A DNA stretch of 64,000 nucleotides from Pseudomonadales bacterium (lineage in GTDB: Bacteria > Patescibacteriota > Microgenomatia > UBA1400 > PJMF01). The position numbers were made by a program, and so were the translations under genes. The notes under the pieces were generated by a model, which was given only the letters and a program-made list of their open reading frames with translations, made no database searches and was not told the DNA's origin. Location: NCBI GenBank assembly GCA_020632255.1, contig JACKFX010000001.1, positions 58,734-122,733 of the forward strand, given 5' to 3'. Below, one piece after another: positions 1,100-1,133 of the stretch (the stretch's first letter is position 1; each line of letters opens with the position of its first letter).

Positions 1100-1133
1100 A
1101 TAACTTCGTATAACATACAAATTATTATTTAAT
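1100..1133 (+). promoter_or_regulatory. lox-like recombinase half-site (ATAACTTCGTATA + ACATACAA) 54 bp upstream of the integrase start
   Basis: 13/13 identity to the loxP arm and 6/8 to the loxP spacer. The expected inverted arm is degenerate (6/13). Confidence 0.4.

Follow-up and report, generated by a model that had tools for sequence, protein, structure and literature searches.

Why does a sequence identical to one arm of loxP lie beside a recombinase gene in the genome of a bacterium labelled Pseudomonadales? We addressed this question in a stretch of 64,000 nucleotides (contig JACKFX010000001.1 of assembly GCA_020632255.1, positions 58,734 to 122,733), hereafter the window. An earlier note, made from the letters alone, had flagged positions 1100-1120 as a core binding site of the Cre/Xer-like recombinase encoded next to it, within an island bounded by two 64-bp repeats. 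Our analysis points to another answer, to which we assign a probability of about 70%: the window opens with an integron-like gene-capture platform of a bacterium of the Candidate Phyla Radiation (CPR)/Patescibacteria type, in which the flagged site would be an accessory docking site for the integrase. The two elements at the centre of the question are:

1100-1120, plus strand: the flagged site, distal arm 'a' of an attI-like region, defined by a family position weight matrix, an arm map and the sequence.
234-1046, minus strand: a tyrosine recombinase of 270 residues, IntI/XerA-like by Pfam, NCBIfam and alignment to PDB structures.

The sequence was re-read and found as first described: 1100-1112 on the plus strand (ATAACTTCGTATA) is identical to the loxP arm at 13 of 13 positions, 1113-1120 (ACATACAA) agrees with the loxP spacer GCATACAT at 6 of 8, and the site stands 53 nt upstream of the integrase open reading frame (ORF), starting 54 bp from its first base. 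The chance of such a match had been put at 0.002, a value that assumes equal base frequencies; with the AT-rich composition of the window, about 0.007 exact matches to the 13-mer are expected per 64 kb on both strands, but the exact match itself is real. Taken alone, identity to loxP is weak proof, given the many motifs that could be recognised. Matches with at most three mismatches to the 13-mer were not enriched in the window (33, against 24.3 ± 5.3 in shuffles). Those with at most two mismatches number five, all within the first 5.8 kb, where 7 of the 9 occurrences of AC[AT]TCG[TC]AT in the window are also found.

Conservation was assessed on 80 loci fetched from species-representative genomes around orthologous integrases, whose identity across the compared loci is 58-83%. 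Relatives of the integrase in public data exceed 8000, many of them 75-83% identical, under lineage labels that include Moranbacteria, Portnoybacteria, Gracilibacteria, Shapirobacteria and Saccharibacteria. The junction motif (A/T)TCG(T/C)ATAA-AAACGA-GTT, located by fuzzy matching, served as upstream anchor and could be placed in 78 of the 80 loci. Conservation was counted over 77 loci, with the window counted in and the near-identical locus L001 left out, and the family matrix used to score the window was built from the other loci. A block resembling TTCGTATAATATACAA (at most five mismatches) lies upstream of the junction GTT in 72 of the 77 loci, at 55-57 nt from the junction G in 70 of these 72; three or fewer mismatches were reached by 6 of 1540 composition shuffles. 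The consensus of this block, TTCG(T/C)ATAA(T/C)ATACAA, holds about 1.5-2 bits per column and the adjoining columns are unconserved. In the window, the arm proper is TTCGTATAA (1105-1113), followed by a C and ATACAA (1114-1120), and the family matrix ranked the 1100 site best in the 64 kb with 29.7 bits, the runner-up reaching 12.3 bits. The search for the same motif at homologous islands, which the earlier note had proposed as a check, was thus positive for this site. Since the flagged site is conserved at a fixed position across the family, it is almost certainly a functional element, and its likeness to loxP is family-wide.

Across about 0.9 Mb of fetched loci, the only recurrences of the exact 13-mer are those in L001, L007 and L043, all at this position, and the family consensus ATAAnTTCGTATAA(T/C)ATACAA keeps 12 of the 13 letters of the loxP arm. 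In addition, ACTTCGTATAA (1103-1113) coincides in every letter with a XerC arm of Acinetobacter pdif sites (PMC10132070). The simplest reading is one of family resemblance: the loxP arm shares the XerC-type arm of dif/pdif sites, so that loxP, the XerC arms and the sites of this integrase family have an old arm motif in common, and two C's in the window's site happen to perfect its match to loxP.

Where recombination takes place relative to this site was read from two further elements:

1146-1163, plus strand: crossover-proximal core of the attI-like site, from the arm map, column conservation, contig ends and cassette turnover.
1135-1143, minus strand: weak inverse-orientation arm 'b', TTATGAAAA (TTATACGAA in other loci), the inverse arm at -29 of the arm map.

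The core consists of arm 'c', ATCGTATAA (1146-1154), a central AAATGA (1155-1160) and G|TT, with the bar between 1161 and 1162. Its columns come near 2 bits in the family alignment, and the junction ...TCGYATAA-AAACGA-G|TT is kept in 78 of 80 loci. With a 9-mer matrix, direct-orientation arms were found at -15 in 69 of 77 loci (1146-1154 in the window) and at -56/-57 in 59 (1105-1113), and inverse arms at +1 in 22 of 77 (the cassette's own arm), at -29 in 12 and at -81 in 8. The two direct arms are 41 bp apart, about four helical turns, and a C-to-T change is common to both in one clade. The flagged site is the distal one of this pair, a second copy of the left arm, and not the crossover.

The sequence to the right of G|TT differs at every locus, and contigs end exactly at ...AGTT(A) in 8 loci, with one scaffold gap besides. 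One integrase, P0041, is 100% identical in nine samples (contigs L087-L094 among them), its upstream sequence being identical as far as the contigs reach; after GAGTTAT, the seven contigs extending past that point carry five unrelated first cassettes. Where annotated, the ORFs of these cassettes encode a hydrolase, a methyltransferase with a helicase, an HD-domain protein with a transporter, and an unknown product. The window and L001 share a cassette leader from exactly the first base of TTATACGCC, the DNA to its left being unrelated. Because of the variable right side, the contig breaks, the cassette turnover and the common start of this leader, the crossover is placed between 1161 and 1162. 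The flagged site, 56 bp away, remains linked to the integrase. The core is built as in dif: arm, 6-7 nt, arm. The 1100 site had been taken for a core site at the attI-equivalent position; it is indeed a recombinase-type arm in an attI-like region on the cassette side, but the crossover lies further on, at G|TT. We also considered the attI region as an attC-like hairpin, in which the distal arm would pair with the cassette arm, and rejected it: judged by eye, the spacing is very asymmetric and the inner segments are unpaired.

We propose that new cassettes enter at G|TT (between 1161 and 1162), in a dif-like core whose left arm, (A/T)TCG(T/C)ATAA (1146-1154), and central region of 6-7 nt would belong to the platform and whose right arm (family consensus GTTATatGAAAT) would be supplied by the incoming cassette, recombining as a folded single strand. 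The attI1 site of class 1 integrons has accessory IntI1-binding direct repeats, DR1 and DR2. The flagged site may be a comparable extra docking site that helps to assemble the recombination complex. Integrase binding is predicted there because the site repeats the crossover-proximal arm, and we consider it fairly probable, judging from the sequence, that it is an integrase-binding accessory or operator site. The second function relates to the following element:

1092-1120, minus strand: candidate integrase promoter, read from the sequence, its columns being conserved in the family logo.

This putative promoter, of the extended -10 type and modest in quality, comprises a -35 element TTGTAT (complement of 1115-1120), a 17-nt spacer containing the arm, TG (1099-1100) and a -10 element TAAATT (1092-1097). 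The flagged site probably overlaps it: lying between the -35-like TTGTAT and the TG-extended TAAATT, it would allow the integrase to repress its own promoter. We infer both roles, accessory and autoregulatory, for a site whose conservation and spacing, like the crossover position and the structure and turnover of the cassettes, were observed directly.

The integrase itself was compared with known recombinases. It has the Pfam domains Phage_integrase and Phage_int_SAM_4. The best NCBIfam model was the integron integrase TIGR02249 (218 bits, cutoff 265, in two stretches), practically tied with the XerA model NF040815 (215 bits, cutoff 220); the XerC and XerD models scored 185 and 183 bits, with cutoffs of about 330. 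Its best PDB match was Vibrio IntI4 (2A3V), nearly tied with XerA, and the matches at E <= 0.001 include IntI4, XerA, XerD and XerH and no Cre structure. The alignment with IntI4 2A3V jumps from query 195/198 to IntI 201/245, leaving about 43 residues (202-244) of IntI4 without counterpart, while XerA 4A8E aligned end to end; the integrase lacks the IntI-specific domain. This additional domain near patch III has been described as a defining characteristic of IntI and as necessary for integron recombination (PMC9668308, citing Messier and Roy 2001). Compared with a Cre sequence entered by hand, the integrase is 20.7% identical over 290 aligned positions and 70 residues shorter. Calling it Cre-like was too strong, the protein being IntI/XerA-like, about 21% identical to Cre, and the arm being that of known XerC sites. 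The 64-kb window encodes no second tyrosine recombinase. A 'Cand' subgroup of Xer-related recombinases from candidate phyla is counted among simple enzymes that possibly compensate Xer function (PMC8138268). Contigs encoding the exact integrase of the window were all about 1 kb long and broken at repeats, and no information was gained from them.

The integrase is transcribed away from an array of four ORF cassettes, all on the plus strand and interleaved with a repeated ORF-less mini-cassette:

1162-1248, plus strand: ORF-less mini-cassette, copy 1, an 82-bp element without the second palindrome, ending with G at 1248 (fold z = -6.2).
1249-2059, plus strand: cassette 1, with an ADP-ribosyltransferase-toxin-like ORF at 1326-1892 (ORF, domain search, fold z = -5.3).
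2060-2192, 3154-3286 and 4155-4287, plus strand: mini-cassette copies with the palindrome (repeat search).
2193-3153, plus strand: cassette 2, with an HNH endonuclease ORF at 2215-2733 and a small membrane ORF at 2813-3037 (ORFs, domain search).
3287-4154, plus strand: cassette 3, with an ORF of unknown function at 3364-3954 (ORF, repeats).
4288-5527, plus strand: cassette 4, with an ORF of unknown function at 4368-5342 (ORF, fold z = -3.9).

Every ORF is followed by an imperfect hairpin whose first box ends in AAC and whose end is GTTA. In cassette 1, the boxes are R'' 1945-1955, L'' 1957-1967 and L' 2044-2054, followed by the spacer AAAC and G 2059, and the stem is present in the minimum-energy fold. 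Cassette 2 has R'' 2748-2758, L'' 2760-2771 and L' 3138-3149, then GCC and G 3153; its stem pairs at 11 of 12 positions as read from the sequence and is too long for our strict hairpin finder. The two halves of this stem are about 380 nt apart, and the membrane ORF (74 residues, 2813-3037) lies in the loop. In cassette 3 (R'' 4058-4068, L'' 4070-4081, L' 4139-4149, then AAAC and G 4154), the stem shows compensatory changes relative to cassette 1; it is not in the minimum-energy fold, and its pairing was read from the letters alone. Cassette 4 has R'' 5387-5397, L'' 5398-5408 and L' 5512-5522, a 4-nt spacer and G 5527, and its 3' half is common to the window and L001. The left boundary of cassette 3 is exact, 3287-3337 of the window being equal to 9087-9136 of the reverse complement of L001, with unrelated sequence leftward. 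This shared 50-nt leader contains TTGATATAAT, an extended -10-like sequence, and different ORFs stand behind it in the two loci.

Integron cassettes are excised as circles and inserted again at G|TT. The starts of the window's cassettes are complementary to their own R'' boxes: TTATGCGCC (1249) to GCACATAAC in cassette 1, TTGTGTG (2193) to TCACACAAC in cassette 2, TTATACGCC (3287) to GGCGTATAAC in cassette 3, and TTGAGCG (4288) to TCGCACAAC in cassette 4. Of 8 variable positions, 4.8 in a cassette start fit the complement of its own box; after permutation of the boxes among cassettes, the figure is 3.45 ± 0.13. Such complementarity between start and own box is the signature of integron cassettes. 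The strict finder required an 11-nt stem paired at 10 or more positions with its partner across a loop; AAC had to precede the first half by 0-3 nt, and GTT to follow the second by 0-6 nt. It returned 3.5 hairpins per 10 kb on the array side of the integrase and 0.33 on the other side, a ratio of about ten, with at least one hairpin in 36 of the 44 loci having at least 1.5 kb of array. The filtered hairpins (n = 82) have a median length of 116 nt. Unpaired nucleotides typically number one behind AAC and four ahead of GTT, and this asymmetry recalls the extrahelical bases of attC. Their boxes follow the consensus caTCacATAAC for R'' and GTTATatGAAAT for R'. The stems fold better than shuffled sequences and covary, their sequences differing between cassettes while the pairing is kept.

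The 82-bp element GTTAGGC...GCCTAAC precedes every ORF cassette in four identical copies (1161-1242, 2059-2140, 3153-3234 and 4154-4235; 0 expected). Copies 2-4 run into a 42-nt palindrome (2144-2185, 3238-3279 and 4239-4280) and end with CCGGCCA|TT; the whole unit looks like an ORF-less mini-cassette. ORF-less mini-cassettes are also repeated elsewhere, in four copies in L021 and two in L029. No convincing plus-strand promoter that could act as a common cassette promoter Pc was found at the attI-like region with a generic scan. Promoter-like sequences were found instead within the mini-cassette (TTGACT-18-TATTCT with TG, 1187-1216, plus strand, from the promoter scan) and in cassette leaders, and cassettes may carry their own promoters. 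Two of the ORFs contain long-range inverted repeats: 1360-1377 and 1777-1794 in the ADP-ribosyltransferase-like ORF (18 nt, 100% complementary), and 3520-3539 and 3742-3761 in the ORF at 3364-3954 (20 nt, 95% complementary).

This organisation resembles integrons, and attI1 in particular, in several respects: the integrase diverges from the array, insertion takes place at G|TT of a core adjoining the integrase gene, integrase-type boxes recur upstream of this core, and the cassettes end in imperfect AAC...GTT hairpins (RYYYAAC...GTTRRRY) and start with the complement of their own inverse core. In contrast to integrons, the window's integrase is devoid of the IntI-specific domain, the arms are of XerC type and 9-11 bp long, and the R and L boxes are about 12-18 nt apart instead of about 5. 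Canonical attC sites have a box spacing different from that of the window's cassettes. Moreover, the accessory site is oriented like the left arm and not like an R box, and the hosts here are CPR bacteria.

The resemblance to Xer systems is equally detailed. The arm is identical to the XerC arms ACTTCGTATAA and ATTTCGTATAA (PMC10132070), the second of which belongs to the chromosomal dif site ATTTCGTATAA-tgtata-TTATGTTAAAC (PMC10132070). Two arms surround a short central region of 6-7 nt, the enzyme is of Xer size, and discrete modules are bounded by such sites. The arm is followed by a hexamer which in the family consensus is TATACA, matching the reverse complement of TGTATA, the central region of dif. 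In the window it is CATACA, equal to the 6-bp overlap region that the Cre cleavage positions define in loxP. Integration as a folded single strand is known from CTX phage; attC of integrons also recombines in that form, replication then resolving the junction, and for the cassettes here the covarying stems would be indirect support. The system differs from Xer/dif in that the locus is not at a GC-skew switch, a single recombinase is present and no XerC/XerD pair, no XerD-type arm (TTATGTTAAAT) is found, and each cassette carries a hairpin site. Two conserved arms, as in dif, were not found either: the flagged site is a lone left arm with a central-like hexamer and no right arm, the left arm alone being conserved at 1100, and at 1146-1170 the right arm is variable and cassette-borne.

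As for Cre/loxP, the 13/13 arm and 6/8 spacer of the window, the 12/13 arm of the family consensus and the lox-like inverted arms of the consensus core TTCGTATAA-AAACGAG-TTATACGAA speak for a likeness. The site at 1100, however, has one arm only, 1121-1133 (ATTATTATTTAAT) not matching TATACGAAGTTAT; the enzyme shares about 21% identity with Cre, than which it is shorter by 70 residues, and the flagged site is not the crossover point.

Several observations weigh against our proposal for the flagged site. A recognisable distal site is missing in 5 of the 77 loci and is hence not indispensable. The C-to-T change shared by the two arms is a suggestive co-variation, but it was seen in one clade and is probably a single event. 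The proposed integrase promoter is weak, with 8 of 12 hexamer matches, and was not reported by the generic promoter scan. A site serving the integrase only would not require the 7 nt (ATACAA) by which the conserved block exceeds the arm; this extension fits a promoter element, so that the conservation could be mainly transcriptional. Finally, the integrase is without the domain that IntI needs to handle folded attC (PMC9668308).

The island proposed by the earlier note, in which the 1100 site and the sites within the repeats are core sites of one integrase and the repeats are attL and attR next to tRNA-Leu, concerns the following features:

1-78, plus strand: 3' part of a tRNA-Leu(TAG), cut by the window edge (Rfam tRNA match 1-76; complete tRNA-Leu(tag) in L001).
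79-230, plus strand: tRNA-Leu-associated module, with a terminator-like hairpin (76-119), a small hairpin (166-178), a palindrome and a copy of the tRNA 3' end.
166-229, plus strand: left 64-bp direct repeat, 100% identical to the right copy, with the half-site at 186-207.
5712-5775, plus strand: right 64-bp direct repeat, with the half-site at 5732-5753, followed by a terminator-like hairpin.

The loxP-like sequences are present in both repeats as described (ATGTATCC-A-GATACGAAGTAAT; on the minus strand the arm is ATTACTTCGTATC, with 2 mismatches to the loxP arm). Perfect repeats ending in a copy of the tRNA-Leu 3' end flank the integrase and the array, the integrase adjoining the left one: the last 15 nt of the tRNA (64-78, CCTCTCGTCGGCACC) recur at 216-230 and, at 14 of 15 positions, at 5762-5776. 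In addition, repeat and 1100 site share TTCGTAT (ACTTCGTAT) and ATACA with a shift of 1 nt, for which we estimate rough odds of about 1e-4 for two short sequences. However, the repeat half-sites scored -14.9 bits with the 21-mer family matrix and -3.2 bits with the arm matrix (their 10-mer arm ranks about 1950th among 128,000 window positions), and they lack the nearly invariant arm end ATAA(C/T). Direct repeats containing the tRNA 3' end flank integrase and array in this window only. No meaningful flanking direct repeat (exact, at least 13 nt) was found in 44 other loci and no distal copy of the adjacent tRNA 3' end (at most 3 mismatches in 16 nt, within 8 kb) in 17 loci; nor did the 80 loci contain a homologue of 79-229 or the 64-bp repeat. 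In L001, the 97%-identical relative, the integrase abuts the tRNA directly with no such repeat or module, and the family crossover is G|TT at 1161 and not the 1100 site. About 30 of the 80 loci have a tRNA gene whose 3' end faces that of the integrase, 3-430 nt beyond its stop, which would suit an island; these tRNAs are mostly Ser, also Leu, Ala and Trp, and have no distal repeat of their end.

The palindrome of the module, GTATCCAGAT-ACGAAGTA-ATCTGGGATAC (188-216), helps to place it. This 29-mer was located in two contigs of JGI metagenomes. One, L085, has it about 140 nt beyond a tRNA-Leu(GAG), with a copy of this tRNA's own 3' end following; the module, present once there and with neither integrase nor array, resembles an unoccupied target. 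The other, L086, has no tRNA close by. No integrase was found near the palindrome in the 15.0 kb (L085) and 8.6 kb (L086) fetched from these 50- and 36-kb contigs. The small hairpin upstream of the palindrome covaries among the three copies of the module (GTCAC/GTGAC, TTCC/GGAA and TAGCC/GGCTA). The module (79-230; L085 14622-14768, minus strand; L086 about 2890-2982) consists of GTCTGCAC(A/T)TC, the hairpin, the invariant palindrome and a copy of the neighbouring tRNA's 3' end. Across 1-6500, the tRNA was the only RNA family that Rfam recognised. Because of the matrix failure, the absence of repeats at other loci and the lack of an integrase in the stretches fetched from L085 and L086, the 64-bp repeat is assigned to a separate module associated with tRNA-Leu, which in this lineage only occurs on both sides of the integrase and array. 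The module may represent a scar, a small RNA gene or a miniature integrative element, and nothing ties it to the integrase. Its half-sites accordingly do not hold as integrase sites of attL and attR. Since L085 can be read as an unoccupied target, we nevertheless keep the island as a quite unlikely explanation. A short ORF, MNKKGFTSITLIVVIVAIIVSGGYFQIEFGVTK (5623-5724), has a pilin-like N-terminus and its stop codon within the right repeat.

The flagged site could also be conserved for transcription only: it would then be a promoter driving the integrase, the cassettes or both, perhaps with an operator on which a host regulator acts, and the integrase would not bind it. The minus strand does read TTGTAT, 17 nt, TG-n-TAAATT; ATACAA, the -35 element seen from the other strand, is among the best conserved columns, as are the TA and CA that make up the -10 and TG, and the plus-strand family consensus also holds TATAAT. 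Promoter spacers are normally not conserved. Here, the most conserved stretch of the spacer is exactly the 9-mer of the crossover-proximal arm, the clade-specific change is common to both arms and the promoter scan was silent at this place; we regard a purely transcriptional role as unlikely. Alternatively, the recombinase might be the cell's own Xer and the adjoining sites its chromosomal dif, exploited by the cassettes as by IMEX (integrating mobile elements exploiting Xer). The XerC-type arm, the end-to-end alignment with XerA, the absence of another tyrosine recombinase in the window and the 'Cand' subgroup of Xer-related enzymes in candidate phyla (PMC8138268) would fit. A dif at the terminus was nonetheless rejected on the GC skew, which has no switch at the locus: in about 22 of 26 loci its sign is unchanged from one flank to the other, and it is positive throughout the 64-kb window. 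The right arm of the core is moreover variable and cassette-borne, and one metagenome-assembled genome (MAG) carries two paralogous loci, L035 and L071. This explanation, which overlaps ours in mechanism and differs only on the primary cellular role of the enzyme, is very improbable. A chance match or a laboratory loxP remnant, to which the single arm and the prior of about 0.007 per window might point, has a next to negligible probability, being refuted by the fixed position of the site in 72 of 77 environmental loci and the recurrence of the exact 13-mer in three other MAGs.

The taxonomic labels of the loci call for a remark. Several CPR-type loci (L001, L005, L024, L028, L002 and others) come from MAG records labelled Pseudomonadales, Gammaproteobacteria or Atribacterota, which are probably mislabels. 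A 60%-identical integrase with the same junction motif was found on a 1.39-Mb contig labelled as archaeal (L065, MCBF01000001.1, an Altiarchaeales MAG), reflecting spread across domains or else mis-binning.

The searchable full-text literature yielded no description of integron-like arrays in CPR/Patescibacteria, and the flagged site lies where insertion and control take place in an integron-like gene-capture system that is widespread among CPR bacteria and apparently undescribed. Integrons are known from bacteria and, recently, from archaea, and are defined by an integrase with an extra domain. The platform described here works like an integron, fails this defining protein feature and has sites of Xer-type geometry. 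The chances are slightly better than even that it represents an undescribed, CPR-wide integron-type capture system with dif/lox-type arms, run by a minimal Xer-like integrase without the supposedly necessary domain. If so, it would represent an extant intermediate linking Xer/dif with integrons, and hairpin cassette capture would not need the IntI insertion. As both arms and the crossover are contained in 1095-1170, the region offers a simple experimental handle, and a compact recombinase with lox/dif-like arms would be a possible tool. A much shorter Xer-like enzyme appears to run cassette capture in many candidate-phyla lineages, where populations with an identical integrase differ in their first cassette. 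Confirmation would provide a concrete model of integron evolution from Xer/dif, and would extend integron-type gene capture to the CPR, whose tiny genomes have poorly understood routes of gene flux.

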